A stretch of DNA of 59,861 nucleotides, filler included, from 6 parts of 6 records of this genome joined end to end with filler, not necessarily neighbours in it, one strand, 5' to 3'; counted from the whole stretch's first letter, positions 6,318 to 53,395 are shown. Notes: generated from the letters alone by a model not told the origin. Made by a program: numbers and translations.

Positions 6318-6417
6318 NNNNNNNNNNNNNNNNNNNNNNNNNNNNNNNNNNNNNNNNNNNNTTAATTAATTAANNNNNNNNNNNNNNNNNNNNNNNNNNN
6401 NNNNNNNNNNNNNNNNN
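6318..6417. other. Artificial contig spacer
   Basis: 100 bp: N-run + TTAATTAATTAA (stops in all six frames) + N-run. Confidence 0.99.
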
Positions 6418-24246: not shown

Positions 24247-24346
24247 NNNNNNNNNNNNNNNNNNNNNNNNNNNNNNNNNNNNNNNNNNNNTTAATTAATT
24301 AANNNNNNNNNNNNNNNNNNNNNNNNNNNNNNNNNNNNNNNNNNNN
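24247..24346. other. Artificial contig spacer
   Basis: N-run + TTAATTAATTAA + N-run. Confidence 0.99.
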
Positions 24347-24373
24347 AATGAAATCCGATCACCTGATACAAAC

Positions 24374-25240
24374 ATGATAAATGAGTTGAGAAGACAAGAA
24401 GAAGTTTCCAAAATAGAACCCGCAATAATGGACTTTCAATCGTTTAAACGGAATATATTGACGCGCATTCCTCGAGATGATGAAATCGACTCATATGAAA
24501 CTCATTATATTTTAGACTCCCAAATTATTGACTTGATGCAACGTGTAAATAATACGATGAAAAGCATTGGCAATATACCAAAGGAATTCTTGATTTTTGG
24601 TGGATGTAGCCCACACCGATGCCCAGGGGCCTTCGATGTTAACTTATTATTAAACTGCTATTACAATGTAAAAATCAAAGACGGGTTTACCTTAGACTAT
24701 ATTTATGCATACAATAACAATGGTGGCGAACCTTTAGTCTATTCTAGAAAACACCGCGAAAGACCATTTGACTTTTTAGATGAGTATTTTGCTCGATATA
24801 ATTTCATCAAACAACCTTTTATGCTATTAGGAAGTGAACCAAATCTTGAGTTAACAATGCCTTATACTCCTCAACTCATCTTTGAAAATACACCATTTTC
24901 TGTATTTCAATTTGGCTTAATGTGCATGAATATTCGTCGGTTCTATTTGCATTGGCACTCTAACTATAACGACAGGAAGTATTTATTAACCCAAAGCGGA
25001 CTCAATCGTTTCATTGCCAATAACGTAGGAAACCTGAATGATGATGAAGTAGTGGCTTTAAAAAAGATCGACTGCAGGCCTACCGTCAATTTCTACAAAG
25101 ATTTTGCCAAAATATCAATTATGTCTTATGAAGAAAATATTGGTTATTCTTTCGCACATATTTTGTTGAAATTCCCAAATATTTTTATAAAAGTGAATGA
25201 TAACATTGTTATTAAATCAAAAGCAAAACGACTTTACTGA
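24374..25240 (+). CDS. Hypothetical protein (may be 5'-truncated)
   Basis: 288-aa ORF, visibly more AT-rich than the rest of the contig; motif-like segments LDYIY..GGEPLVYSR and FYLHWHSNYND; no function recognised. Confidence 0.7.
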   Translation: MINELRRQEEVSKIEPAIMDFQSFKRNILTRIPRDDEIDSYETHYILDSQIIDLMQRVNNTMKSIGNIPKEFLIFGGCSPHRCPGAFDVNLLLNCYYNVKIKDGFTLDYIYAYNNNGGEPLVYSRKHRERPFDFLDEYFARYNFIKQPFMLLGSEPNLELTMPYTPQLIFENTPFSVFQFGLMCMNIRRFYLHWHSNYNDRKYLLTQSGLNRFIANNVGNLNDDEVVALKKIDCRPTVNFYKDFAKISIMSYEENIGYSFAHILLKFPNIFIKVNDNIVIKSKAKRLY

Positions 25241-25266
25241 AAAAAACCTGACAACCATCATAGCTG

Positions 25267-25298
25267 CGTAGGTTGGATTATCTCAGCGTAACTCAACA
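25267..25298 (+). repeat. Degenerate GTAG-type REP
   Basis: CGTAGGTTGGATTA-tctcagcg-TAACTCAACA: GTAG followed by an imperfect palindrome, between convergent genes. Confidence 0.55.
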
Positions 25299-25301
25299 GT
25301 A

Positions 25302-26864
25302 TTATAGCTTTTCCGCCTCTTTAACCAGTTGGGCCGCCGTTCGTCCTTTACGGTTTTTCACGTCAGGGTCCGCTCCAGCCTCCTTAAGAGCTTCCATGGC
25401 CTCCCGGTTTATTTCCCGGGCCGCATAATGCATGGGAGTGTCGCCGATTTTATCCTTGGCATGGGGATCGGCGCCATGCTTTATCAGCAATCTCGTCATC
25501 TCCAATGCATTTTCCCCTGCACTCGCGGCGATATGAAGAGGTGCGACGCCTTTGGAGTCATGAATGTTCGGATTAGCCCGGGCTGCAAGAAGCTCATTGA
25601 GCGCTTCAAGCCTCCCGTAGGCCGTCACCCTGTGCAAGGGCGTTTCACCATTTGCGTTTCCGGCGTTAACGTCCGCCCCATGCCGGATCAGCGCTTGCAC
25701 CGCTGCCTGTCCATATTCGGAAGCGCCGTGAAGAGGCGTATTTTTATCCCGATCAATGGCGGCGGCGTCCGCCCCGGCTTCTAAAAGAAGTGAGGTGAGC
25801 CGGCCGTCTTCGTCCCTGGACAAATAATGCAGCGGGGTGCAACCCTTTTGGTCGACAGCGCTTGGGTCGGCGCCTTTTTTAAGCAGGGCATTAATCATTT
25901 CAACCCGGGTCGATCTATTGAGGACAAAATCGGCCGCAGCGTAATGAAGGGGAGTTAGACCCGAATCATCGACGGCGTTAACTTCTGCACCGCGTCCCAG
26001 CAGCAACTCGGCTGCTTCAGCATATCCCTGTTCACAGGCTGCGTGTAACGGCGTATTTCCGCCGTCCCTTCCGGCTGATACGTCTGCGCCCAGTTCCAGG
26101 AATTCGGCGACCAGTCCGCTCAACCCTCTTTTACTGGCCAGGTATAATGGCGTCTCGCCCACGCTGTTCGGCCGGTCATACTCTGCTCCATGATCAAATA
26201 ACAGCCGGGCGGTCTCTTCACGGCCCTTTGTCAAGGCGTTATGCAGGGGCGTATATCCCGACGGGCCCGCAACATTGATTTCCGCACCGGCCGAAATTAA
26301 TATCCGCGCGATTTCAATATCCCCGTTCCAGGCGGCCATATGCAAGGCGGTTTCCCCATTAAACCGCTGATTGACGTCCGCCCCCTGGTCCAGCAGTTCT
26401 TGCACCTTTATCTTGTCGGAAGCTTCTACCGCCTCTTCCATGGGAAACACGATATAAGATCCTGTCTTGATCAAATAAAACTGGAAGGCCATGGTCAGAA
26501 CCAAAACCAACGTTGCTGTGATCGGGTAGACGGCGCCTAATTCCGCGGCGATTCTTTCAGGAGAGATATACGGACCGATGAAAATGGCGGCAAACACCGC
26601 CGCATAAACCAAAAGAGTTATAAAGCAGCCGTAATGAGCATAGATGGCAATATCCCGGCCCATGTAATACCCGAAAAAGATGAATGGAAAGATTAAAGGC
26701 CAGGACCAGTCAAGACCCCAGGTGAATATATATCCAATGTAAACAATGAGCGCCCACGCCGGCAGATGCACAATCGGGCCGGGCATACGGTAAGCCGAAA
26801 AACCGGTTGTAGCCGGGATGGGTTTCGAGAAATAAAGCAGAATTGTTTTCAGATAAATATTCAT
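25302..26864 (-). CDS. Ankyrin-repeat protein with N-terminal membrane domain
   Basis: About 11 repeats of G.TPLH.A...G....LL..GAD; first ~135 aa hold about 4 hydrophobic helices. Confidence 0.92.
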   Translation of the reverse strand: MNIYLKTILLYFSKPIPATTGFSAYRMPGPIVHLPAWALIVYIGYIFTWGLDWSWPLIFPFIFFGYYMGRDIAIYAHYGCFITLLVYAAVFAAIFIGPYISPERIAAELGAVYPITATLVLVLTMAFQFYLIKTGSYIVFPMEEAVEASDKIKVQELLDQGADVNQRFNGETALHMAAWNGDIEIARILISAGAEINVAGPSGYTPLHNALTKGREETARLLFDHGAEYDRPNSVGETPLYLASKRGLSGLVAEFLELGADVSAGRDGGNTPLHAACEQGYAEAAELLLGRGAEVNAVDDSGLTPLHYAAADFVLNRSTRVEMINALLKKGADPSAVDQKGCTPLHYLSRDEDGRLTSLLLEAGADAAAIDRDKNTPLHGASEYGQAAVQALIRHGADVNAGNANGETPLHRVTAYGRLEALNELLAARANPNIHDSKGVAPLHIAASAGENALEMTRLLIKHGADPHAKDKIGDTPMHYAAREINREAMEALKEAGADPDVKNRKGRTAAQLVKEAEKL

Positions 26865-26948
26865 GCTTCACCTATGCAGTCCAACCTGAAACCGGTTTAA
26901 CTTATTCTATGTCATAACTCGATCTATTGGGATTCCTTTTCCTGTGAC

Positions 26949-27308
26949 TTAAAACAACCGGTCCGTCCGGCCTTCAAGGATGCGTTTGATTTCCAAAAGC
27001 CCTTTTTTGATATCGCGCATGGCGGAATCGGCGTCCCGCGACGGCGTCTTGCCGGCGGGTTCCGGGGCGCTGATTTGTTTTTTGGCCCCGGCGATTGTAT
27101 ATTTTTCGTCGTAGAGCAGACGCTTTATTTCAAGGAAAATGATAATATCCTTGCGGCGATAAAGGCGTTGTTTGGAAGAAGCGCGGTTAGGTTTGATCTG
27201 GGGAAATTCGGTTTCCCAGAATCGCAGGACATGAGGCTCAACCCCGACGATTTCGGCGGCCTCGCCAATTTTAAAATATACTTTGTCGGGAATATCAGGG
27301 GGGCGCAA
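26949..27308 (-). CDS. MerR-family HTH protein (conserved downstream of ihfA)
   Basis: YFKIGEAAEIVGVEPHVLRFWETEF...RLYRRKD; pheT-ihfA-merR synteny. Confidence 0.92.
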   Translation of the reverse strand: MRPPDIPDKVYFKIGEAAEIVGVEPHVLRFWETEFPQIKPNRASSKQRLYRRKDIIIFLEIKRLLYDEKYTIAGAKKQISAPEPAGKTPSRDADSAMRDIKKGLLEIKRILEGRTDRLF

Positions 27309-27335
27309 TATTCACCTCCCGTCCATAGTCATGAG

Positions 27336-27635
27336 TTATCCGGTCTCATTCCTGAGAGACTTGCGAATGGACTGGCTGGGTTTGAAAGTAAGCACGGTTC
27401 GGGCTTCTATGGTCATGTCGTCGCCGGTTTGAGGATTCCTTCCCCGGCGCTCCTTTTTTTTCCTGACTTCAAAGTTGCCCAATCCGGATATCTTGACGCT
27501 TTCACCCCTGGCCAGCGCATCCTTGATTATCTCAAAAAGATCGTCCACAACCCTGGCCGCGGCAGTGCGGGGTAAGCCCATTTTTTCCTGAACCACATCA
27601 ATGATATCGGCTTTTGTCAGGACGTTGTCACCCAC
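27336..27635 (-). CDS. ihfA: Integration host factor alpha subunit
   Basis: LTKADI, VKISGLGNF and GRNPQTG; immediately after pheT. Confidence 0.92.
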   Translation of the reverse strand: MGDNVLTKADIIDVVQEKMGLPRTAAARVVDDLFEIIKDALARGESVKISGLGNFEVRKKKERRGRNPQTGDDMTIEARTVLTFKPSQSIRKSLRNETG

Positions 27636-27667
27636 GGTTATCCTCCACAGCGGCCATGATTAAATTT

Positions 27668-30073
27668 TCAGCCCCGAAGGGTTGCGGAAAATTCTTTAAG
27701 AACCCTGGCTGTAATTCTCTCGTGAACGGCATTGACCTCTTCATCGGTCAGCGTGCGTTCCTTGGAACGATACAAAAGGCGGAAGGCCAGGCTCTTTTTA
27801 TTTTCGCCCAACTGCTTGCCTTCATAGGCGTCAAATATGGTCGCTTCCGTCAGGAAGTCTTCTCCCATACCCAGAATGTAATCGAGCACCCGGGCCGATT
27901 CGGTTTCCCTGTCCAGGACAATGGCCAGATCGCGGTCGACAAACGGGAAGCGGGGCAATTGTGCAAACCGCGGCCTTTCCTTGCGCAACGCCAGAATAGC
28001 ATTCATATCCAATTCGAATACATATGCATCCTGCCTAAGTCCGAAAACCTTGGCGACCTTGTCGTCTATCCGCCCCAGGCATCCCAGGGCCTGTCCCATT
28101 ATGCCCAGGCGGGCCGAAGCCGACCGGTCGTAATAAGCGGGCAATCCGGCGCGTTCAAAGGCGGGCATGGGCACGCCCAGGCCTTCCAGCAGGTCTTCGA
28201 CATAACCCTTGATATCGTAAAAGTCCACGGATTCGGGCTTCTGGCGCCATGAAATATCCGAACTGTTTCCCGTAATCAATCCACCGATCGCGGGACGTTC
28301 GTCAGGCAGATCTTCATTTTCCCTGTGGAAAAATGTCATGCCTATTTCATAGATCTCCACATCCTGGACCCCGTGGGAATTGTTACGGCGGGCCGTATCC
28401 AAAAGGCCCGGAACCAGGGTGGTGCGCATCAGGGCCTGATCTTCGGACAGGGGATTGATTATCCGGACCGTGTTGCGGCGTTCATCATCATCGGGCAGAT
28501 TGAGCCTGTCGCAGAATCCTTCCTCGATAAAACTGTAATTAACAACTTCGGAAAGGCCCATGCCTTCCAACCGGTCCCTGATCTCCACGCGCAGGGGACG
28601 GGACGGCTCCTCGGGCCAGGCTTCGTCCCTGGCGGCCGGGATTGTGGCCGGTATCTGATAAAAGCCGATCAGGCGGGCCACTTCTTCATAAATGTCCACG
28701 TCCCTTTCCAGGTCGACCCTGAAACTGGGAGGTTCGACATTAAGAACTTCACCGCTGCCGGAAACCTCGAGTTCAATTCCGGCCAGGCCGGCGACCATGC
28801 GTTTATGTCCGATATCCGTTCCCAAAAAGGCGTTGCACTTGGCCGGCGAAAAGGGAATTATCCTTTTTTTATGAGGTTTGGGGTAGTTATCGATAATGCC
28901 GCGGGCGATTGTTCCGCCGGCCAGTTCGGCCATCAGGGTCGCGGCCCTGTTCGCTGCCCAGGCGCATATTTCGGGATCGGTTCCCCGCTCGAAGCGGAAG
29001 CTGGCGTCGGTGGAAAGACCCAGGGTCTTGGAAGTGCGCCTGGTTGTGACCGGATTAAAATAGGCGCTTTCCAGCAGAACGTCTTTTGTTTCATTAACGA
29101 TTTCGGAATTAAGGCCGCCCATGACCCCGGCCAGGCCGACCGATTTTTTACCGTCGCAGATCATGAGCATGTCCGGGGTCATAATTCTTTCCACCCCGTC
29201 CAGGGTGACGAAACGGTCGCCTTCGTCGGCCGTCTTGACCACAATGCGCCTTTCGTCCAGCGTATCCATGTCAAAGGCGTGTTGAGGCTGCCCGACTTCC
29301 ATGAGAACGAAATTGGTAATGTCGACTATGTTGTTTATGGGGCGGACGCCGGCCGCATGCAGCCTGTCCGCCAGCCAGAAGGGGGAAGGTCCGACCTTGA
29401 CGTCCAGGATGACCCGGGCCGCGTAACGGGGACAATGATCCGGGTCCAGGATGTCGATGGAAGTCAATTCATTGATATCCGGCCCGGTTTCCTTGAGATC
29501 GAACACCGGGCGCTTCAAACGGACGCCGGACAAGCCGGCCACTTCCCTGGCCACGCCGATTATTGATAGGCAATCCGGCCTGTTGGGAGTAACGCCCAGT
29601 TCGAAGACCCAGTCATCCAGCTTAAGAGCTTTTTTAATGCTTTGTCCGGGCCGTGCGGTTGAAGTCAGGGCCAGTATTCCCGAAGCATCAGGTCCGACGA
29701 CCAGTTCGGCTTCGGAACAGAGCATACCGGTGGAACGCACGCCCCGAATCTCGGATTCGCTAACCTGCATGCCGCCGGGCAGTTCGGTCCCGACTTTTGC
29801 CAGTGCGGACAGCATGCCCACCGTAACATTGGGGGCGCCGCAGACCACGTCCACGGTTCCTTCACCGGTTTCCACCCGACAGATCTTTAGATGATCGGCC
29901 TTGGGATGGTCTTCCACGGACACAATCAGGCCGACAATTACACTGTCCAGGTAAGAATAACGGTCGCTAAGCTCCTCCACTTCCAGGCCGACCATGGTCA
30001 GCCGTTCGGCCAGTTGTGTGGGGGAGACGTCCAGATCAACGTAGTCCCGAAGCCAATTATAGCTTAGTCGCAT
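27668..30073 (-). CDS. pheT: Phenylalanine--tRNA ligase beta subunit
   Basis: 801 aa; HPKADHL, VVCGAPN, TPNRPDCLS, INNIVDITN, RFERGTD and FDX-ACB C-terminus. Confidence 0.97.
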   Translation of the reverse strand: MRLSYNWLRDYVDLDVSPTQLAERLTMVGLEVEELSDRYSYLDSVIVGLIVSVEDHPKADHLKICRVETGEGTVDVVCGAPNVTVGMLSALAKVGTELPGGMQVSESEIRGVRSTGMLCSEAELVVGPDASGILALTSTARPGQSIKKALKLDDWVFELGVTPNRPDCLSIIGVAREVAGLSGVRLKRPVFDLKETGPDINELTSIDILDPDHCPRYAARVILDVKVGPSPFWLADRLHAAGVRPINNIVDITNFVLMEVGQPQHAFDMDTLDERRIVVKTADEGDRFVTLDGVERIMTPDMLMICDGKKSVGLAGVMGGLNSEIVNETKDVLLESAYFNPVTTRRTSKTLGLSTDASFRFERGTDPEICAWAANRAATLMAELAGGTIARGIIDNYPKPHKKRIIPFSPAKCNAFLGTDIGHKRMVAGLAGIELEVSGSGEVLNVEPPSFRVDLERDVDIYEEVARLIGFYQIPATIPAARDEAWPEEPSRPLRVEIRDRLEGMGLSEVVNYSFIEEGFCDRLNLPDDDERRNTVRIINPLSEDQALMRTTLVPGLLDTARRNNSHGVQDVEIYEIGMTFFHRENEDLPDERPAIGGLITGNSSDISWRQKPESVDFYDIKGYVEDLLEGLGVPMPAFERAGLPAYYDRSASARLGIMGQALGCLGRIDDKVAKVFGLRQDAYVFELDMNAILALRKERPRFAQLPRFPFVDRDLAIVLDRETESARVLDYILGMGEDFLTEATIFDAYEGKQLGENKKSLAFRLLYRSKERTLTDEEVNAVHERITARVLKEFSATLRG

Positions 30074-30095
30074 GCCAATTAACCGTTTTTAAAAA

Positions 30096-30271
<176 letters not shown>

Positions 30272-30371
30272 NNNNNNNNNNNNNNNNNNNNNNNNNNNNN
30301 NNNNNNNNNNNNNNNTTAATTAATTAANNNNNNNNNNNNNNNNNNNNNNNNNNNNNNNNNNNNNNNNNNNN
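30272..30371. other. Artificial contig spacer
   Basis: N-run + TTAATTAATTAA + N-run. Confidence 0.99.
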
Positions 30372-45343: not shown

Positions 45344-45443
45344 NNNNNNNNNNNNNNNNNNNNNNNNNNNNNNNNNNNNNNNNNNNNTTAATTAATTAAN
45401 NNNNNNNNNNNNNNNNNNNNNNNNNNNNNNNNNNNNNNNNNNN
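45344..45443. other. Artificial contig spacer
   Basis: N-run + TTAATTAATTAA + N-run. Confidence 0.99.
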
Positions 45444-45600
45444 TCATTCAGGCCAGGTCCGCGGATCTATCCAGCAAAGCCCACAGCCGTTTCGGAACCG
45501 CATCAATTGCAGCCGTCTTCCTTGTTGGCCTTGCGCGCCGCGTATTCGTTCAGACAACGCATAAACCAGTTTATGCTGATCAGAAGGAAAAGGCGCCAAC
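45444..45600 (-). pseudogene. Relic of a REP-associated tyrosine transposase (RAYT, IS200/Y1 family)
   Basis: Minus strand reads SINWFMRCLNEYAARKANKEDGCN*, then in a shifted frame ALLDRSADLA*M; resembles the RAYT segment SWFMRCLNEYIARxANKEDxCTGRFWEGRF..QALLDxxALLACM as I recall it. Confidence 0.75.
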
Positions 45601-45737
45601 AATTAATATGGATATCTGTTTTTTGAAATAGCAGGTTGTAAGAAGCCGGTCGGGCCTTCTCATTTTATTTCGGATCAACAGTTGAAAAACAGGTCTATAT
45701 TATTGATAATAACGTCTACATCCTTTTCGGGAAAATT

Positions 45738-47468
45738 ATGAATCGATATGCAAGAAAAATCATAGCGCTTGTATTACTTCCGTTCGGAGCGACCGGATTG
45801 ATTTTTTGTCTGGCCATGTTATTGGATCAAGATATTTACGCCAATAAATGGGCGCGCCATTATTCGGTTATTGGAGCGATTCAATGCGTAATCATTATCC
45901 TGGCCGGTTTTTATTCAGCTTACCCCGGCAAGATTTCCAATACTTTTAATCAGTTTTCACAACGGCTTTTCACGGAAGACAAAAGACAAAAAATCGCACA
46001 TTATCTTATTCCTGCCTGCATCGCGGGAATCATAATATTCGGCATCCTGCTAAGGCTGAACTACTATTCTGAAAACAGATCCTTTTGGCATGATCCGGCC
46101 TGCCTGGCCGTTGCCGTGGCCGATGTATCTTTTGGCGACATTCTGAAACCGCTCGCCAACGGTCAATCCGCTCCCCTGGGTTTTCTTATTCTGTCAAAAA
46201 TCATTGGCATGCATTTCGATTATCAGGAATTTGCACTAACTTTTTTACCCCTTGTTTTCGGCATTTTTTCTCTTCCGGCGCTGTATCTTCTCGGAAATGA
46301 ATTATTTCAAAATAAATACACCCTGTTGTTTGTTGCTTTTGTTGCATTTTCCCTGGACGCCGTTTATTACTCCACGGAGTTCAAGCAATACTCGAGCGAC
46401 ATCTTTTTTTCAACCATGATCCTGTATTTTACGATAAGGGCTTATAATAATAATCTTGGCAAAAAGGATTATACGTGTTTGGCCGTCGCCGGCCTCGTAT
46501 CAATCTGGTTTTCCCATGCAGCGATTATAGTATCGGCCGGATGCGGCCTGGGACTGGCCGCGGTTTTTATTTTTATAAAAAGAGTGGATAGAAAAGCATT
46601 ATTAAAAATAATCTCATTGGGCGCCATATGGCTGTTCAATCTTATGGCAAACTACTTCCTTTATACCCGCGATTCCATACCCCAACGTAAATATGAGTAT
46701 TTTGCGGACGGGTTCGCCCCGTTTCCAATCGTCAGCCTGGCTGATATTAAATGGTACATTGACGCATTCCTGGGACTTTTCAGCCACCCCTTGAGTTTCG
46801 GCTATGTTCCATATTTCTTTCCATTAATTTTTCTTCTGACGGGATTGATTTATACTTTTAAGAAAAACAAGGATTACGGGCTGATTATTCTTTTTCCCAT
46901 ATTAATTCTTTTAGCGCTTTCCATGATAGGCAAGTATCCATTTGTCTCAGGCGTCAGGCTGTGGCACGCGCGGCTTATTTTATTCACTGTTCCTATTTTT
47001 TATTTTTTGATCGTGCAAGGAATACGGGCGTTAGCTGAAAAATCCGGCTCTAACTTTCTTTATCTTATCATCGTTATATTTATCTTGAATCACCAAATAT
47101 TACATTTGTCGCTGGCCGCCTATCACCGTGAGGAAACACGGCCGCTGGTCGAGCATTACCTGACCGGCAGAAAGAGCGACGACCGGATTTATGTCTATTC
47201 TGAATCCGTATGCGCCTTTAAATATTACACCCGGCACACTGACGAACCATTTATACGGTTTGAATTTCCCGACAACGTCCCTGATGAGGAAATCAACACC
47301 GTCCCCAAACCGCCCGAAGACGGGGGAGCATGGTTTTTACTATCTCACATAACCAAAAACAAAAAACACAATATTAATAATTATCTTAACAAAACAGGTC
47401 TTATGAAGTTTGTACACAGGACCGACGGAGCATCCCTTTATTATTATGAGTTTTCCAATAAGGACTGA
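45738..47468 (+). CDS. GT-C-fold polytopic membrane glycosyltransferase (ArnT/PMT-like)
   Basis: More than 10 TM helices; RSFWHDPA loop, QSAPLGF and YYSTEFKQYSSD motifs; soluble C-terminal tail. Confidence 0.75.
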   Translation: MNRYARKIIALVLLPFGATGLIFCLAMLLDQDIYANKWARHYSVIGAIQCVIIILAGFYSAYPGKISNTFNQFSQRLFTEDKRQKIAHYLIPACIAGIIIFGILLRLNYYSENRSFWHDPACLAVAVADVSFGDILKPLANGQSAPLGFLILSKIIGMHFDYQEFALTFLPLVFGIFSLPALYLLGNELFQNKYTLLFVAFVAFSLDAVYYSTEFKQYSSDIFFSTMILYFTIRAYNNNLGKKDYTCLAVAGLVSIWFSHAAIIVSAGCGLGLAAVFIFIKRVDRKALLKIISLGAIWLFNLMANYFLYTRDSIPQRKYEYFADGFAPFPIVSLADIKWYIDAFLGLFSHPLSFGYVPYFFPLIFLLTGLIYTFKKNKDYGLIILFPILILLALSMIGKYPFVSGVRLWHARLILFTVPIFYFLIVQGIRALAEKSGSNFLYLIIVIFILNHQILHLSLAAYHREETRPLVEHYLTGRKSDDRIYVYSESVCAFKYYTRHTDEPFIRFEFPDNVPDEEINTVPKPPEDGGAWFLLSHITKNKKHNINNYLNKTGLMKFVHRTDGASLYYYEFSNKD

Positions 47469-47596
47469 AATCGGGGTGCGCCGGCCGCTTTGCAGACCAT
47501 TTTTACCCCGTCGATCCGATAGAGTGATAATAGATTCTATTACTCGGGACTTAAAAAAAGAAACGGCGACAGGCCCCAAATTACCCGAGGGCGTCA

Positions 47597-47625
47597 TTGA
47601 CAACCCCTCATCCCGCCATTATACT
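47597..47625 (+). promoter_or_regulatory. Sigma-70 promoter upstream of the UAS-GT2-SDR genes
   Basis: TTGACA-N17-TATACT. Confidence 0.7.
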
Positions 47626-47817
47626 GTTTTCAAGCAAAAAATATTCCGAATCAAGTTCGATATAGTATTGATATGAAAGGTATTAAAAAGTCAGAACCTG
47701 ATAATTCATCTTTATCTTCCCATATTTGGAATGTCACGCCGCAAGAAGTCCATTCAGGCATTCAAGCCTGCAAACAACTTAAAACATTATCAATTTGTTC
47801 CGGAGAGGAGCGAGCAA

Positions 47818-48942
47818 TTGAAAATTTTATGTTTCGGCGCCGGCGGATTCATCGGTTCACACATGGCGGAACGATTACTGGCTGAGGGGTATTCTGTTAC
47901 AGGCATTGATACTCATACCGACAAAATCAAGGAATTCATAAATCATCCAAACTTCACTTTTGTCCATCAGGACATTCGTAACCCGGGTTTTGACGCGGAT
48001 AAACTAACCCGGGATGCAGACCTGGTCGTTGACCTCATTGCGTATGCCAACCCTGGAATATATGTCAGGATACCTCGGGAGGTATTTCGGCTTAATTTCA
48101 CTGAGAATTTGAAAATCGCCGAAGCATGCGTGCAATATGGGAAACGTTTAATTCAATTTTCAACCTGCGAAGTATACGGCAAGACATATAGCGGCGTGGC
48201 GCCCGACAAGCTGAAGGACCCTGAAGATCCAGAGTTGGCCACATTTTCAGAGGATGCCAGTCCTTATATTCTCGGACCGGTAAACAAGCATCGCTGGATA
48301 TACGCCTGCGCCAAACAGCTTCTTGAAAGGGTTCTGCATTCTTACGGGCTCGAAGGGACATTAAATTACACCATCATCCGTCCGTTTAATTTTATCGGTC
48401 CGCGGATCGACTACCTTCCCGGCGACACGGACGGCATCCCCAGGGTTTTTTCATATTTTATGGAAGCCCTGATCAAGGGTACGGAGATGCAATTGGTCGA
48501 CGACGGCAAGCACAGGCGTTGTTACACCTATATTGATGACGCCGTTGACTGCATACACCGGATAGTTGAAAATCCGAACGGCGCCTGCGACCGCCAGATT
48601 TTCAATATCGGATCGCCGGAAAATGAAACCAGCATCCGCCAAATGGCAGAGCTTATGAGGGAAATCTTTGCGGAAAAATACCAAAGCCCTGATGTCCCGC
48701 TTCCCGAGATCGTATCGGTGACCAATAAAGAATTTTACGGCGAAGGTTATGACGATTCGGACCGGCGCATACCTGATATTACCAAGGCGCGAACTCTTCT
48801 GGGCTGGAAGCCTAAACTTGGTTTCAGACAATTATTGGAACTGACAATGGACTACTACATGACCATGTACGATGAAGATGTCAGAGAATGGCGTGAATCT
48901 GAACGGGCGACATCCGACATTAAAGTGATGGACAAAACATAG
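47818..48942 (+). CDS. UDP-D-apiose/UDP-D-xylose synthase-like NAD-dependent decarboxylase
   Basis: GAGGFIGSH, FSTCEVYGKT, RWIYACAKQL, IRPFNFIGPRID and KEFYGEGYDDSDRRIPD closely follow plant AXS/UAS motifs; likely TTG start at 47818 after GGAGAGGAG. Confidence 0.8.
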   Translation: MKILCFGAGGFIGSHMAERLLAEGYSVTGIDTHTDKIKEFINHPNFTFVHQDIRNPGFDADKLTRDADLVVDLIAYANPGIYVRIPREVFRLNFTENLKIAEACVQYGKRLIQFSTCEVYGKTYSGVAPDKLKDPEDPELATFSEDASPYILGPVNKHRWIYACAKQLLERVLHSYGLEGTLNYTIIRPFNFIGPRIDYLPGDTDGIPRVFSYFMEALIKGTEMQLVDDGKHRRCYTYIDDAVDCIHRIVENPNGACDRQIFNIGSPENETSIRQMAELMREIFAEKYQSPDVPLPEIVSVTNKEFYGEGYDDSDRRIPDITKARTLLGWKPKLGFRQLLELTMDYYMTMYDEDVREWRESERATSDIKVMDKT

Positions 48943-48965
48943 CATCCTGGATTGAGAATCAGGCC

Positions 48966-49730
48966 TTGCTGGACAACATTTTCGTAGTAATGCCGGCCTA
49001 CAACGCCGGACTGACGATTGAAAGGGTTTTCGCGCGAATCCCGGTGGAAGCGCGGAAGCGCATAAAACAATATGTCGTGGTGAACGACGGAAGTACTGAC
49101 GACACCCTCGAGGCCCTTTCAAGAATTGCCAATGATTTTACCAACCTGGTGGTTTTGGAGCATCCGGAAAACAGGGGGTACGGGGCGGCGGAAAAGACTC
49201 TACTGACATACGCCTTGAATAAAGGCGCCGACATAGCGATCCTGCTGCATTCGGACGGCCAGTATTCCCCGGAAAAAATCCCGGAGCTTCTTGAACCCTT
49301 TGATAAGGACGAAGCCGACCTGGTCCAGGGATCGAGGATGCTCGGCGGAGGCGCCCTTAAAGGCGGAATGCCTTTATACAAGTATTTGGCCAACAAGACG
49401 CTGACCGCCATTGAAAACTTTGGCTTTGGCATGAGAATGGCCGAATATCACAGCGGTTATATGCTCTATAACAGAAAGTGCCTGGCCGCGATTCCATTTG
49501 AAAAGCTGAGCAATTCTTTCGATTTCGATCTCGAAATGATTGTCATGTCCAAAATCCACGGGCTTCGGATCATGGAAAAAGCCATCCCCACTATCTACGC
49601 TGATGAAGTTTCCCATCTAAATCCGATTAAATACGGTCTGGCCGTACTCGATGTCGTCCGAAAATACAGAAGGGGCTACTATCATGCCCTGACAGTTGCG
49701 GAAGAACGACAAAATGGAGAAAGACAATGA
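48966..49730 (+). CDS. GT2 glycosyltransferase, DPM1/polyprenol-phosphate glycosyltransferase-like
   Basis: VVMPAYN, VVNDGSTDDT, NRGYGAA, LHSDGQY, VQGSR, SGY and FDLEM motifs. Confidence 0.88.
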   Translation: MLDNIFVVMPAYNAGLTIERVFARIPVEARKRIKQYVVVNDGSTDDTLEALSRIANDFTNLVVLEHPENRGYGAAEKTLLTYALNKGADIAILLHSDGQYSPEKIPELLEPFDKDEADLVQGSRMLGGGALKGGMPLYKYLANKTLTAIENFGFGMRMAEYHSGYMLYNRKCLAAIPFEKLSNSFDFDLEMIVMSKIHGLRIMEKAIPTIYADEVSHLNPIKYGLAVLDVVRKYRRGYYHALTVAEERQNGERQ

Positions 49731-50626
49731 TATTGGTCTCAGGGGGCGCCGGAGTAATGGGCTCGCGACTGGTAAAAGCCCTGGTTGCGAATGAGAAAAA
49801 AGTCAGGGTATTAACCTTGCCGGGCGATCCCTTTGTATCTCGTCTCGACGGCTATGACTGCGAAATCGTTTATGGCAACGTGGCCGAGGCCGAAACTTTG
49901 AATGATGTTTATAGCGGCGTGAAAACAGTGTATCACCTGGCCGCCGTTATCATTGCCCATGAAAAAAGCATTTTTGAAAAAATCAATGTCGGCGGGACCA
50001 GAAACATGGTCGAAGGGGCGAAAGCCGCCGGCGTCGATCATTTTATTTATGTATCTTCAGCCGCGGCCGCCTTTCCCAATGCTTCGGATTACGCCAAGTC
50101 CAAGATGAAGGGCGAGGAAATTATCACTTCCCAGCAAGGGATGAAATACACCATTGTCCGCCCTACCCTTATGTACGAAAACGGCGGCGGGCAGGAATTC
50201 ATGATGTTTATGGACTATTTGAAAAAATATCCTGTCGCGCCTTTTATCGGCCGGGGCCGGGCCTTGAAAAATCCTGTATTGGTAGAAGATGCGGTTAAGG
50301 GACTGGCGGCTATTGCCGATAATCCAAAGACTTACGGCAAGACATATAATTTCAGTGGAGGCGAGGAAATCAGCATCTGGGACCTGGCCCGCCTTATGCT
50401 CAAGCACCAGGGCATATCAAAGCCGTTTCTCCCCATACCTTTGCCGGTCTGCCGGTTTATCGCCTCGCTTATGGAAAGGTTGATGAGCAATCCGCCCTTG
50501 ACCGGATACGCCATCAGTCGGATAGAACAGGACGCCAGCCCGGATAATACCAGTGCAAGGGAAGACCTCGGGTACGACCCGATCGGAGTCACCGAGGGCA
50601 TGAATATTTGCTATCCCCTCGACTGA
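49727..50626 (+). CDS. NAD(P)-dependent epimerase/atypical SDR
   Basis: SGGAGVMG, YHLAA, NVGGT, YAKSK and IVRPT; ATGA overlap with the GT2 stop. Confidence 0.85.
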   Translation: MILVSGGAGVMGSRLVKALVANEKKVRVLTLPGDPFVSRLDGYDCEIVYGNVAEAETLNDVYSGVKTVYHLAAVIIAHEKSIFEKINVGGTRNMVEGAKAAGVDHFIYVSSAAAAFPNASDYAKSKMKGEEIITSQQGMKYTIVRPTLMYENGGGQEFMMFMDYLKKYPVAPFIGRGRALKNPVLVEDAVKGLAAIADNPKTYGKTYNFSGGEEISIWDLARLMLKHQGISKPFLPIPLPVCRFIASLMERLMSNPPLTGYAISRIEQDASPDNTSAREDLGYDPIGVTEGMNICYPLD

Positions 50627-50665
50627 TAAGCCTTTTCATGCATCCCCGAAAAAGGAGTTGAAAAA

Positions 50666-51454
50666 ATGGAGACGGATAAAGTTCTGCTTGTGGAAAAGGA
50701 AAGCGGGATCGCCGCGGTTATATTAAATCGCCCGGAAAAGAAGAACGCATTATCGAGGGCCCTTCATAAAGCCCTGGTTGAAACCTTTTTGGAATTGAAG
50801 GATGACAAGGAGACAAGGGTGGTTATCTTAACCGGCGCCGGCGACGCCTTTTGCGCCGGCCTGGATCTGAAGGAACTGGCCGAAGCCGGCAAGCCGTCGG
50901 AAATGCCGGTTGGCAGTGAAGACGCCGGCCGGCTGCCGGAAATTATGGCCAACATGGACCAACCAATTATCGGAGCGATAAACGGACCGGCTGTTACGGG
51001 CGGTTTTGAACTGGCCCTGGCCTGCGACATTCTGATTGCGTCCACGCAAGCGAGGTTCGCGGACACTCATGCCAGGGTCGGCATTCTTCCGGGATGGGGG
51101 CTGAGCCAGGTCCTTCCCCGCATCATCGGCCCCGGAAGGGCCAAGGAATTGTCCTATACAGGCAACTATCTTTTCGCGGACCAGGCCGAGGCCTGGGGGC
51201 TGGTCAACAGGGTTGTTGCTCCGGAAGAACTTATGCCCGCGGCGTATTCCCTGGCCCGGGACATCCTGTCCTGTCTCCCGGAAGCCGTATCCGCTTACAA
51301 GGGCCTTATCAACAGGGGCCTGACCATGAATCTTGATGAGGCCCTGAAGATGGAAGCCGAAATTTCAGCGGCTTCGGCCCGGCGCGTCACCGGCGAGGAA
51401 CTGGCGGAACGACGGAAGATAATCACGAGCCGGGGCCGGAGTCAACAGGGATGA
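50666..51454 (+). CDS. Enoyl-CoA hydratase/isomerase family protein
   Basis: LNRPEKKNAL, AFCAGLDLKE, INGPAVTGGFELAL and FADTHARVGILPGWG. Confidence 0.93.
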   Translation: METDKVLLVEKESGIAAVILNRPEKKNALSRALHKALVETFLELKDDKETRVVILTGAGDAFCAGLDLKELAEAGKPSEMPVGSEDAGRLPEIMANMDQPIIGAINGPAVTGGFELALACDILIASTQARFADTHARVGILPGWGLSQVLPRIIGPGRAKELSYTGNYLFADQAEAWGLVNRVVAPEELMPAAYSLARDILSCLPEAVSAYKGLINRGLTMNLDEALKMEAEISAASARRVTGEELAERRKIITSRGRSQQG

Positions 51455-51471
51455 GTCCCAATATCATAGCA

Positions 51472-52653
51472 TCAAGGCGACGATGATACGGCAACCAGGT
51501 CGCGAACCCCCTGCCTTACAGGCGAACAAAAACGGGCCAGTTCATTAAAATATGCATCGGGATCGAAAATTTCTTCCGGTGCGAACACTCCGGCCGGAGG
51601 AGATTCTTTTCCGGCGAACAGGGACAGGCCCGCGGCCATGGGCACTCCCGTGACCCCGCCCATGCCTCCGCTTATGCCGGCCGTAATTGTTGCGCCCACA
51701 GTCTTTTCACGGCCGCCTTGCACTCCCCTGGCCCAGGCGAACAAGGGAGGCAGCCTGGGACCGGAAGGCTTGGAGGATTTAGGTTTGGTAGAGGCAGAGG
51801 CCATGTCAGACAAGACCATGGCTACACCATCCCGGAGGCTCAGATGCCCGGCATCTATAGCCGAAGCCAGGTCGCGCAGGTCTTTCAACATTCGGGGGGA
51901 AACAATCATGGCGTTGCAACTATGTTTCAAACCGGGCCACCGGCGGTGAAATGTGATTGGTTCGGGGTGGCCCAGCGTGTAGACCGGCGCCGAGCCAATG
52001 CCGGGATAATCGAGCATAACCTCTTCAAGAGGCTTGACGTCCGTCAATGCACCATCCTTTAGCAAACGGATTGTCCCGCTTATCTGCAGGAGCCAATGTT
52101 CAATGGCCGCGCCAAAGCTTCCTCCTTGTCCGGGGAGGGACTCTTCAGGGGCGCCTCCCGAGGCGCTCCACCCGGTCACGATGGTTTCCACCTCATCCAG
52201 TTCGGACGCCGCCTTGGCGGCTAACAGGTTGGTCAGTCCCGGACTGGCCCCGAGTCCGATAACAGCGGTCATGCCTTCTTTTTGAGCTTCTCCATCCAAC
52301 TCCAACATGTCCAGGGTCGGCTCCCAGTCGTCGCAAATGTCCAGGTAGTGGCGGCCCGCTGCAATGGAAGCCTTCAGCACAGGCAAGCCGAAACGATAGA
52401 AAGGCCCGACAGTGTTAAGGACCACGTCCACTCTTTCAAAAAGTCCGGCCAGGGCCGATGCATCTTCAATGTCGAGTTGAACGGCCGATGTTTTGTTCCC
52501 GCATTGTTCAGAAAAAGACCCGGCCCGCTCGCCGTCCCTATCCGCGATAATAACTTCATCCACAAAATCGAAATCAACCGCCGTCCGCACTGCAAATTGC
52601 CCCATGCCGCCGCAGCCTCCCAAAGCGGCTACCCGTAATTTTTTTCCGGACAT
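51472..52653 (-). CDS. Saccharopine dehydrogenase-like NAD(P)-binding oxidoreductase
   Basis: LGGCGGMG, NTVGPFYRFG, YLDICDD, GLGASPG and GHPEP; ATG 52653 after AGGAGG. Confidence 0.88.
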   Translation of the reverse strand: MSGKKLRVAALGGCGGMGQFAVRTAVDFDFVDEVIIADRDGERAGSFSEQCGNKTSAVQLDIEDASALAGLFERVDVVLNTVGPFYRFGLPVLKASIAAGRHYLDICDDWEPTLDMLELDGEAQKEGMTAVIGLGASPGLTNLLAAKAASELDEVETIVTGWSASGGAPEESLPGQGGSFGAAIEHWLLQISGTIRLLKDGALTDVKPLEEVMLDYPGIGSAPVYTLGHPEPITFHRRWPGLKHSCNAMIVSPRMLKDLRDLASAIDAGHLSLRDGVAMVLSDMASASTKPKSSKPSGPRLPPLFAWARGVQGGREKTVGATITAGISGGMGGVTGVPMAAGLSLFAGKESPPAGVFAPEEIFDPDAYFNELARFCSPVRQGVRDLVAVSSSP

Positions 52654-53052
52654 GTTCACCTCCTGTCAGTTGTATGAATAGGATCAATGAAACGCCAGTC
52701 GCGATAGTATTTCATATGACTTTTAGAGGTTTTTCGTTGCCAAACCCGAAAACGCCGGGCCGATAAAGCCGGGCCCGGGCAATTTCGCCATATGGAATTT
52801 TTTGTTAATCTAAAATGAGAATAAGACTTTATGCCCTGTTCGGAGCATAATAAACTATAGGGTTTGCTGCTGTCAAACAACGTCATTGGGTAATTCGCAA
52901 ACAGAGCCTGCCGGTGAGTGTAAAGCAATTCGCACCCGGCGGTTGGCGTATCGGCGTTTGTTCGAGTATAATTATTCCCGACAGGTTAAGAAGCAAGACC
53001 GAATAATATCATAAGTTTATGAGCAGGAGACGCACGGCGGAACGGGCTTTAT

Positions 53053-53295
53053 ATGAAGAGTCTTTTCAACAGGGCATCCTCGGAGAAGGCAGGCGGTCGG
53101 GAATGGAAAAACCGGGCCGTCACCCTGGTAATCGGTTTAGCCGCCGCACTAATGGTGTTCCTGGTTTCCGGAACCAAGCCTGTTCGCCTTTTTGAAGAAA
53201 AACTGCTGGATTATCGATTTCAAACCAGGCCTCCACAAAAAGTTGACGAACGATTGATCCTGACCGCGGTTACCGATCGGGATATCGAAATATTG
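53053..53295 (+). CDS. CHASE2-like sensor protein N-terminus (truncated)
   Basis: TM helix followed by FEEKLLDYRFQTRP...DERLILTAVTDRDI. Confidence 0.65.
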
Positions 53296-53395
53296 NNNNN
53301 NNNNNNNNNNNNNNNNNNNNNNNNNNNNNNNNNNNNNNNTTAATTAATTAANNNNNNNNNNNNNNNNNNNNNNNNNNNNNNNNNNNNNNNNNNNN
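53296..53395. other. Artificial contig spacer
   Basis: N-run + TTAATTAATTAA + N-run. Confidence 0.99.

Follow-up and report, generated by a model that had tools for sequence, protein, structure and literature searches.

The DNA analysed here (hereafter the window) is 59,861 nt long and consists of six contigs joined by five N44-TTAATTAATTAA-N44 spacers. Within it, we examined four same-strand genes at 45738-50626 as a candidate system for transferring a sugar through a lipid carrier. The first of these (45738-47468, + strand) encodes a 576-aa membrane glycosyltransferase, assigned to the GT-C fold from a fold model, hydropathy and its Pfam PMT_2 relatives. It is followed by a predicted UDP-glucuronate decarboxylase of the ArnA/UAXS superfamily, identified by sequence alignment (47818-48942, + strand; 374 aa, TTG start), by a 254-aa glycosyltransferase of family 2 (GT2) that resembles DPM1, ArnC, GtrB and PpgS in Pfam, NCBIfam, PDB and Foldseek comparisons (48966-49730, + strand), and by a 299-aa NDUFA9/HpnA-like short-chain dehydrogenase/reductase (SDR) of the extended type, recognised from its NCBIfam match and its GxxGxxG and YxxxK motifs (49727-50626, + strand). 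The TTG start codon of the decarboxylase is preceded by GGAGAGGAG, and a database protein with 98% identity (P0001, found on a 17-kb contig) is likewise 374 aa long. The ATG of the second SDR overlaps the stop codon of the GT2 gene (ATGA), an arrangement indicative of translational coupling. The first-pass annotation of this DNA had described a DPM1-like GT2, a coupled SDR and a GT-C gene upstream on the same strand, and coordinates, database matches and fold agreed with it on all three.

The best PDB sequence matches of the 374-aa protein were Arabidopsis UDP-apiose/UDP-xylose synthase (UAXS; 6H0N/6H0P) at 310 bits, ArnA at 276 bits and UXS at 93 bits, with ~43% identity to UAXS (hand count) and ~40% to ArnA. 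Translation and alignment confirmed the motifs FSTCEVYGKT, YACAKQL and EFYGEGYDDSD at 47818-48942, together with the insertion after YGKT to which the first-pass annotation had drawn attention; this 21-residue loop aligned to Arabidopsis UAXS without gaps and was absent in ArnA. The protein keeps both the GxxGxxG motif of the extended-SDR NAD site and the catalytic Thr/Tyr/Lys residues and, on comparison with 6H0N/6H0P, the equivalents of Thr139, Glu141, Tyr185, Lys189, Arg182, Asn214, Arg341 and Tyr105 were identical. Since this catalytic set is kept, the window protein is, on sequence evidence, a UDP-glucuronate decarboxylase of the ArnA/UAXS superfamily. Table 3 of PMC12820599 lists these residues for UAXS, ArnA and UXS; being common to all three, they mark the superfamily and not apiose synthesis.

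According to the same table, UAXS differs from ArnA and UXS at two positions, Cys100 (Ala in ArnA/UXS) and Cys140 (Ser in ArnA/UXS), and the paper describes Cys100 as key in ring opening and proton transfer (PMC12820599). The window decarboxylase retains the equivalent of Cys140 in STCEVY and, as had been pointed out earlier, reads LIAYANP at the AAICTP site of UAXS, so that Ala replaces Cys100. A 2019 study of the UAXS mechanism by Savino and colleagues reportedly supports the role of Cys100. To place these residues among relatives, we compared three sets: the window protein's 120 nearest relatives in the database, the 120 nearest to the bacterial enzyme YpUAS, and a genome survey comprising the best 80 loci by decarboxylase match, with one genome per species. 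Among the relatives of the window protein, position 100 was Ala in 119 and Ser in 1, position 140 was Cys in 119 and Ser in 1, and in 118 the loop after YG was as long as in plants (21 residues); in the genome survey, position 100 was Ala in 80/80 and position 140 was Cys in every locus except L003. YpUAS relatives carried Cys100 in 118 cases (the other 2 fell outside the pattern match), Ser140 in 112 and Cys140 in 8, with a loop of mainly 19 residues. GrUAS of Geminicoccus roseus (P0141), which has been shown experimentally to produce UDP-apiose (Smith and Bar-Peled; PMC5607165), has Cys100 and Ser140 (STSETY), as does YpUAS itself (L084, Salipiger plasmid; Cys100 and Ser140). What the window protein shows at these positions is thus common to its whole lineage, and the pattern is reciprocal: Ala100/Cys140 in the window lineage, Cys100/Ser140 in GrUAS and YpUAS, and Cys at both positions in plants and in a metagenomic sister clade described below.

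Since the proven GrUAS has Ser140, the Cys in STCEVY, which the first-pass annotation had taken as a mark of plant-like apiose synthases, cannot serve as one. By alignment, the residue common to the plant and the proven bacterial synthases, Cys100, is the very one missing in the window decarboxylase, and position 100 may therefore be used as a simple residue test that separates this lineage from proven apiose synthases. Bit scores point the same way: the window protein scored 310 against UAXS and 276 against ArnA, a 34-bit margin, and GrUAS scored 346 and 211, a 135-bit margin. With Ala100 and nearly equal UAXS and ArnA scores, the earlier label of plant-like UDP-apiose synthase is not supported.

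Of the two family models for ArnA decarboxylase/UDP-4-keto-pentose synthase, NF008872 provides the name that NCBI assigns to members of the window lineage; the window protein passed its cut-off marginally (321.9 vs 294), as compared with 506.6 for the C-terminal domain of ArnA, 308-358 for members of the window lineage and 280.8 for YpUAS; against NF005998 it scored 322, below the cut-off of 777. Trees were built without plant UAXS and without CeUAS, PDB bit scores being compared for the plants instead, and were rooted on GalE, an outgroup with a very long branch. In these trees, the window lineage formed its own clade (support 97 in the Shimodaira-Hasegawa-like approximate likelihood-ratio test, SH-aLRT), apart from the GrUAS/YpUAS clade (98). 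An approximately unbiased test did not reject a topology uniting the window lineage with the proven synthases (p 0.60). CeUAS (GenBank ETX00953.1/MF191704), a proven synthase, is only 43-44% identical to other synthases (PMC5607165), and might therefore belong to the window lineage. Altogether, 3,647 of 8,000 scored candidates matched at E<=0.001, a count that includes other superfamily lineages. As one element of the explanation developed below, and with the same even confidence that we attach to the whole, we propose that the ArnA/UAXS superfamily has a third, large lineage with Ala100/Cys140, which includes the decarboxylase and is habitually paired with one GT2. An enzyme assay of any member of this lineage was not found in the literature searched, and as far as we found the NCBI names of its members are not based on assays. 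A haloarchaeal relative on a Halomarina plasmid (L082, 7983-9059; 48% identity) also has Ala100/Cys140, with a far shorter loop, and lies in a glycosyltransferase cluster with a flippase and a sulfatase.

The protein encoded directly downstream matched the Pfam GT2 family at 4.1e-24. Its best NCBIfam matches were PpgS (7.6e-20), AglJ, dolichyl-phosphate-hexose transferase and ArnC, all far under their cut-offs (e.g., 71.3 vs 370 for PpgS and 36 vs 529 for ArnC), which places it in none of the named families, and its best PDB sequence matches were DPMS, ArnC and GtrB. The same three enzymes headed the Foldseek ranking (ArnC, 4.6e-14; DPMS, 6.3e-14; GtrB, 1.4e-12) of a model with a mean predicted local distance difference test score (pLDDT) of 90.9. 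Because its nearest relatives in sequence and fold act on polyprenyl phosphates and its gene is linked to that of the decarboxylase, the GT2 is predicted to be a polyprenyl-phosphate pentosyltransferase. Some relatives of this GT2 are fused to other domains. The long ones (P0391-P0510) are mostly fusions with S-adenosylmethionine (SAM)-dependent methyltransferases of ~500 aa, and others comprise a tandem GT2 (P0391), GT2-AlgX proteins (P0399, P0400) and a GT2-SDR protein (P0405). One further protein, P0411, was considered as a decarboxylase-GT2 fusion and rejected, since ~150 intervening residues align to neither part; it is probably a frameshift artefact.

The link between decarboxylase and GT2 was examined in the 80 loci of the genome survey. 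Many of these are from Verrucomicrobiota, and the others from Thermodesulfobacteriota, Desulfarculia, Syntrophales, Acidobacteriota, Thermodesulfovibrionales, Caldithrix, Anaerolineae, Rokubacteria and Planctomycetes. An orthologue of the GT2, with 44-74% identity, adjoined the decarboxylase gene on the same strand in 48/80 loci, with a gap of <=150 nt in 47. In 20 of 21 non-verrucomicrobial loci it was the downstream gene of the two; in 28 verrucomicrobial ones it was the upstream gene, in many cases overlapping by 4 nt. That the genes stay adjacent even when their order is inverted argues well for joint action of the two proteins. The 32 loci in which GT2 was absent beside the decarboxylase gene belong mostly to one verrucomicrobial subclade (49-54% identity), and some are short contigs. 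Other genes recurred in the verrucomicrobial loci (pheS, pheT, rplT, carA, rnc and uvrA); we rejected them as partners, their recurrence reflecting the shared ancestry of close relatives.

Based on its model (pLDDT 91.4), the upstream 576-aa protein has a GT-C fold: all 25 of its Foldseek PDB matches at E<=0.001 were GT-C enzymes, among them PglB, AglB, STT3, ALG12, ArnT, AftA and DPY19. Hydropathy predicted nine transmembrane (TM) segments. The protein also has an additional ~90-aa helical stretch at the N terminus and, starting near residue 480, an alpha/beta domain at the C terminus. The protein itself fell short of the Pfam PMT_2 cut-off (20.2 bits vs 26.1), and 36 of 53 aligned relatives matched that family, the best at E 1.1e-12. 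Asp119, located in the first outward loop (WHDPA within FWHDPA in the window protein; WLDEA in the consensus), was invariant in the 53 aligned sequences. A jackhmmer search seeded with the window GT-C found relatives in 19/80 loci, in several of which (L022, L024, L027, L028 and L030) they lay 13-30 nt from the decarboxylase-GT2 pair. When 39 multi-span open reading frames (ORFs) were submitted to Pfam, PMT_2 was matched at E<=0.001 by 11 of them, which are spread over 9 loci. As a base rate we took five of the surveyed genomes, with 41 PMT_2 matches in a total of 18.0 Mb; 11 matches were observed and ~2.8 expected in the 1.24 Mb of loci (Poisson P = 1.7e-4 for 11 or more). This base rate is rough, since the five genomes were picked for having a GT-C near the pair. 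Thus, GT-C genes are enriched near the decarboxylase-GT2 pair.

As a control on whether this GT2 is confined to the Ala100 lineage, 80 metagenome loci were retrieved with GrUAS as the query, and 72 near-complete genes were placed in a 121-row tree, 8 with coverage <85% being left out. Fifty of these loci fell into the GrUAS clade, where a window-family GT2 (>=40% identity) was found in 4 and the second SDR in 1; 8 of the 50 had <800 nt of room on both sides. The remaining 22 formed a sister clade (SH-aLRT 90), in which the window-family GT2 was found in 17 (42-47% identity) and the second SDR in 12, in the same gene order as in the window: decarboxylase, GT2, SDR. Cys100 was present in all 24 sequences examined (the 22 members and two further ones), and Cys140 in most. 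One member, L148, resembles GrUAS in its scores (350 bits to UAXS and ~221 to ArnA), and its GT2 is 46% identical to that of the window without gaps. Since the module of a UAXS-superfamily decarboxylase and this GT2, with or without the SDR, occurs in both lineages, it would be older than their split. Metagenomic operons that combine a fully plant-like synthase with the same GT2 also make lipid-linked apiose in bacteria directly testable.

The sister-clade operon extends further. In L144 (3973-10887) and L148 (5971-12722), the decarboxylase, GT2 and NDUFA9-like SDR genes are followed by genes for a ~180-210-aa protein, an MBOAT protein and an AlgX-like SGNH protein, with an AMP-binding enzyme ahead of the MBOAT in L144; L153, L154 and L156 have ORF sizes like those of L144 and L148. 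The presence of MBOAT and AlgX-like proteins downstream suggests that the product is O-acylated outside the membrane, and further partners of the module are thus recurrently ones that act there. In one locus of the GrUAS clade (L124, 549-8669), the GT2 gene lies on the opposite strand, and the locus is flanked by two PMT_2 GT-C genes, one of which encodes a 915-aa protein with a pectic-acid-lyase-like domain.

Genes for aminoarabinose tailoring were almost absent from the surveyed loci. Searches by phmmer with ArnD, ArnT, ArnE/F and the formyltransferase domain of ArnA gave matches in 0/80, and with ArnB in 1/80, where it was ~9 kb off; Pfam and NCBIfam scans found no Arn genes on the window contig. 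Therefore, the sugar would be a neutral pentose and not aminoarabinose, and in most carriers the decarboxylase alone must supply the finished donor. Taken as a whole, we consider the chances about even that the four same-strand genes at 45738-50626 constitute a glycosylation route in which a neutral pentose is passed on by a lipid carrier, with xylose favoured over apiose. First, the 374-aa SDR would oxidatively decarboxylate UDP-glucuronate; as the Cys100 thiol is missing, its product would be UDP-xylose, perhaps with some UDP-4-keto-pentose. Second, the GT2, as a peripheral enzyme, would load the pentose onto polyprenyl phosphate at the cytoplasmic face. Third, the coupled NDUFA9-like SDR would work with the GT2, on either the donor or the lipid-linked product. 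Fourth, the lipid-linked pentose would be flipped by a protein encoded off the contig, and we infer that the GT-C would then move it to an acceptor outside the membrane. The sequence of nucleotide sugar, polyprenyl-phosphate GT2 and GT-C had been put forward in the first-pass annotation, and it draws support from the pairing in 48/80 loci, the GT2 matches, the GT-C fold and the GT-C enrichment. Two points favour xylose: Cys100, as the one residue linked to ring contraction, is conserved throughout the proven clade, and xylose is the product that the two lineages with this GT2 have in common.

Certain observations weigh against this reading, some with regard to the sugar and others with regard to the carrier. 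Concerning the sugar, Cys140 is retained in 119/120 relatives, at a position that is Ser in ArnA and UXS; the loop is exactly as long as in plants; the trees did not resolve the deepest branching among the window lineage, GrUAS/YpUAS, ArnA and the haloarchaeal relative, and so leave room for the window lineage to be closer either to ArnA or to the proven synthases; and the sister-clade operon with its full Cys100/Cys140 set means that the shared GT2 family could handle apiose. These points lend a low but appreciable probability to the explanation that, even with Ala100, the decarboxylase genuinely acts as a UDP-apiose/UDP-xylose synthase, with the GT2 making polyprenyl-phospho-apiose and the GT-C apiosylating a surface acceptor. 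It would agree with the top PDB score to Arabidopsis UAXS, with a plant-length loop in 118/120 relatives, with a Cys140 shared by plants and 119/120 relatives, and with the frequent occurrence of the GT2 (17/22) and the second SDR (12/22) next to sister-clade enzymes that have Cys100 and mostly Cys140, including L148 with its GrUAS-like scores and a GT2 46% identical to that of the window. CeUAS, proven to be a synthase (PMC5607165), could itself be of the window lineage. However, Ala100 occurs in the window protein and, apart from one Ser, in all close relatives examined, whereas Cys100 is found in the plant enzyme, in GrUAS, in 118/120 YpUAS relatives and in 24/24 sister-clade sequences, and is the residue described as key to proton transfer and ring opening (PMC12820599). 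In addition, Cys140 is dispensable, since GrUAS has Ser; UDP-apiose synthases (UAS) make UDP-xylose as well, so that a shared GT2 fits xylose at least equally; and the apiosyltransferase of X. pisi is a GT90 enzyme, the GT2 of its operon using UDP-xylose (PMC6193724).

Apiose as the sugar is thus unlikely without being negligible, its claim deriving from the strictly kept Cys140, the plant-length loop, the occurrence of the same operon with a plant-like enzyme and the unplaced CeUAS. A broader version, in which the Ala100/Cys140 lineage represents a second, Cys100-independent kind of UDP-apiose synthase whose obligate GT2 makes polyprenyl-phospho-apiose, we likewise regard as unlikely. If it were true, envelopes carrying the 'plant' sugar apiose, attached via a lipid carrier and a GT-C, would occur in bacteria of many phyla (among them Desulfobacterota, Acidobacteriota and Verrucomicrobiota), and likewise in the Cys100/Cys140 sister clade, whose operon is the same.

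Concerning the carrier, hydropathy gave no TM segment for the GT2, whose model has predicted C-terminal helices at residues 220-235 and 238-253. Its metal motif is H-S-D as opposed to D-A-D in DPMS (HxD for DxD), with His95 and Asp97 invariant in 31 GT2 orthologues, and glucosyl-3-phosphoglycerate synthase (GpgS) stood close behind in the fold ranking (7.4e-12). GT-C relatives were not found by jackhmmer in 61/80 loci within the locus DNA covered, the genomes have 5-11 PMT_2 matches each, the base rate behind the enrichment is rough, and no flippase gene was found on the contig (45444-53295). Finally, a promoter-like consensus (TTGACA-17-TATACT; 47597-47625, + strand) lies in the gap of 349 bases that separates the decarboxylase operon from the GT-C gene. 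The first-pass annotation had placed a separate promoter in this gap; the consensus match stands as a pattern match only, and the promoter scan overall was not above chance, with 15 sites vs 10.7 +/- 4.0 in shuffles.

The main mechanistic rival to the pentose route is accordingly an acceptor other than a lipid carrier: the GT2 would be a soluble or peripheral enzyme that transfers the pentose directly to a phosphorylated metabolite, a membrane lipid (e.g., a hopanoid) or a glycan, and the GT-C would be an unrelated neighbour. The missing TM segment, the GpgS structures just behind ArnC, DPMS and GtrB, the many ~500-aa relatives fused to SAM methyltransferase domains, the hopanoid-associated HpnA as best NCBIfam match of the second SDR, the lack of a GT-C in the DNA covered at most loci and the promoter-like site that splits the GT-C gene from the operon are all compatible with it. 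On the other hand, the named sequence matches of the GT2 are polyprenyl-phosphate transferases, and unrelated GT2 enzymes follow with far lower scores; an enrichment of GT-C genes is seen around the pair, often only 13-30 nt away; and partners that act outside the cytoplasm recur, such as MBOAT with AlgX-like proteins in L144 and L148 and the AlgX fusions P0399 and P0400. Peripheral polyprenyl-phosphate GT2 enzymes without TM helices do exist, namely human DPM1 and mycobacterial PpgS. Considering both sides, we judge direct transfer to be rather improbable.

The second SDR has HpnA as its best NCBIfam match and an orthologue after the GT2 gene in 8/80 genome loci, and a natural GT2-SDR fusion (P0405, 573 aa) is 45% identical to it over 298 aa; we predict that it is an accessory partner of the GT2. 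It could be imagined to act in an Arn-like manner, the decarboxylase releasing UDP-4-keto-pentose and the second SDR reducing this to UDP-L-arabinose or a different epimer, whether the sugar is still free of the lipid or already attached to it. Ala100, which is the residue of ArnA, together with the coupling to the GT2 in the window and the fusion to it in P0405, would be in line with such a scheme. But the NCBIfam score is marginal (family members reach 308-358 and the C-terminal domain of ArnA 506.6), the aminotransferase, formyltransferase and deformylase are absent, and the second SDR accompanies the pair in just 8/80 loci, so that most carriers would be left with a keto-sugar. We therefore hold this scheme to be very unlikely indeed.

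The pentose route proposed here follows, by analogy, the logic of ArnA/ArnC/ArnT and of PpgS combined with a GT-C, applied to a different sugar. As in the aminoarabinose modification of lipid A in E. coli and Salmonella, the order of steps is the same, the decarboxylase belongs to the same superfamily, the GT2 is ArnC-like and ArnT is among the fold matches of the GT-C. The window and related loci differ in being essentially devoid of ArnB, the formyltransferase domain, ArnD and ArnE/F. Furthermore, the decarboxylase differs from ArnA by a Cys for Ser433 and by the 21-residue loop, the GT2 from ArnC in its lack of TM helices, and the GT-C from ArnT in being PMT_2-like, phmmer with ArnT giving no match. 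Plant UAXS, the best PDB match, shares the loop length, Cys140, YACAKQL and EFYGEGYDDSD, whereas Ala100 and a clade separate from GrUAS/YpUAS distinguish the window protein from UAXS and from the bacterial synthases GrUAS, XpUAS and CeUAS (PMC5607165). The accessible part of that paper reports no conserved operon around bacterial UAS genes. The X. pisi apiose operon differs in its GT90 apiosyltransferase and in having another GT2 (Pfam 13704), and a lipid-carrier step is not described in the accessible part of PMC6193724. In combining a DPM1-like GT2 with a GT-C, the window genes resemble PpgS/Rv3779, GtrA/GtrB/GtrC and DPMS with PMT/ALG; in contrast to those three-component systems, the pentose donor would be made next door and there is no GtrA-like flippase gene on the contig. 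In the open-access literature, where candidates were judged by title and the opening of the abstract, neither a bacterial route through polyprenyl-phosphate-xylose nor one that brings a neutral pentose by lipid carrier to Gram-negative-type envelopes was found described.

The four genes lie on a contig of 7,852 bases (45444-53295) between two of the N44-TTAATTAATTAA-N44 spacers, which are located at 6318-6417, 24247-24346, 30272-30371, 45344-45443 and 53296-53395. Its GC content is ~0.39-0.61, as opposed to ~0.21-0.34 in the contigs that flank it; 24347-30271 is the other high-GC (~0.4-0.6) contig of the window, and the rest are at ~0.3. The assembly is probably a mixed bin, and this contig may come from an organism other than that of the rest of the window. 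Since the contig is separate and divergent in GC, genes on neighbouring contigs are uninformative, and only its own genes were treated as context. After the second SDR, it carries an enoyl-CoA hydratase gene, then on the minus strand a gene for a saccharopine-dehydrogenase-like protein, and an incomplete ORF. Neither of the first two was accepted as a member of the system, relatives being found in 0/80 and 1/80 loci, respectively. The ORF (53053-53295) is truncated by the contig end and encodes one hydrophobic stretch, with no Pfam or NCBIfam match. In Terrimicrobiaceae-type genomes (L031-L054, L080), the GT2-decarboxylase pair lies next to pheS, pheT and rplT, and the other high-GC contig of the window also has pheT (within 27668-30073), beside a gene for a 520-aa ankyrin-repeat protein (25302-26864); this pheT resemblance between that contig and the Terrimicrobiaceae-type loci may be due to chance.

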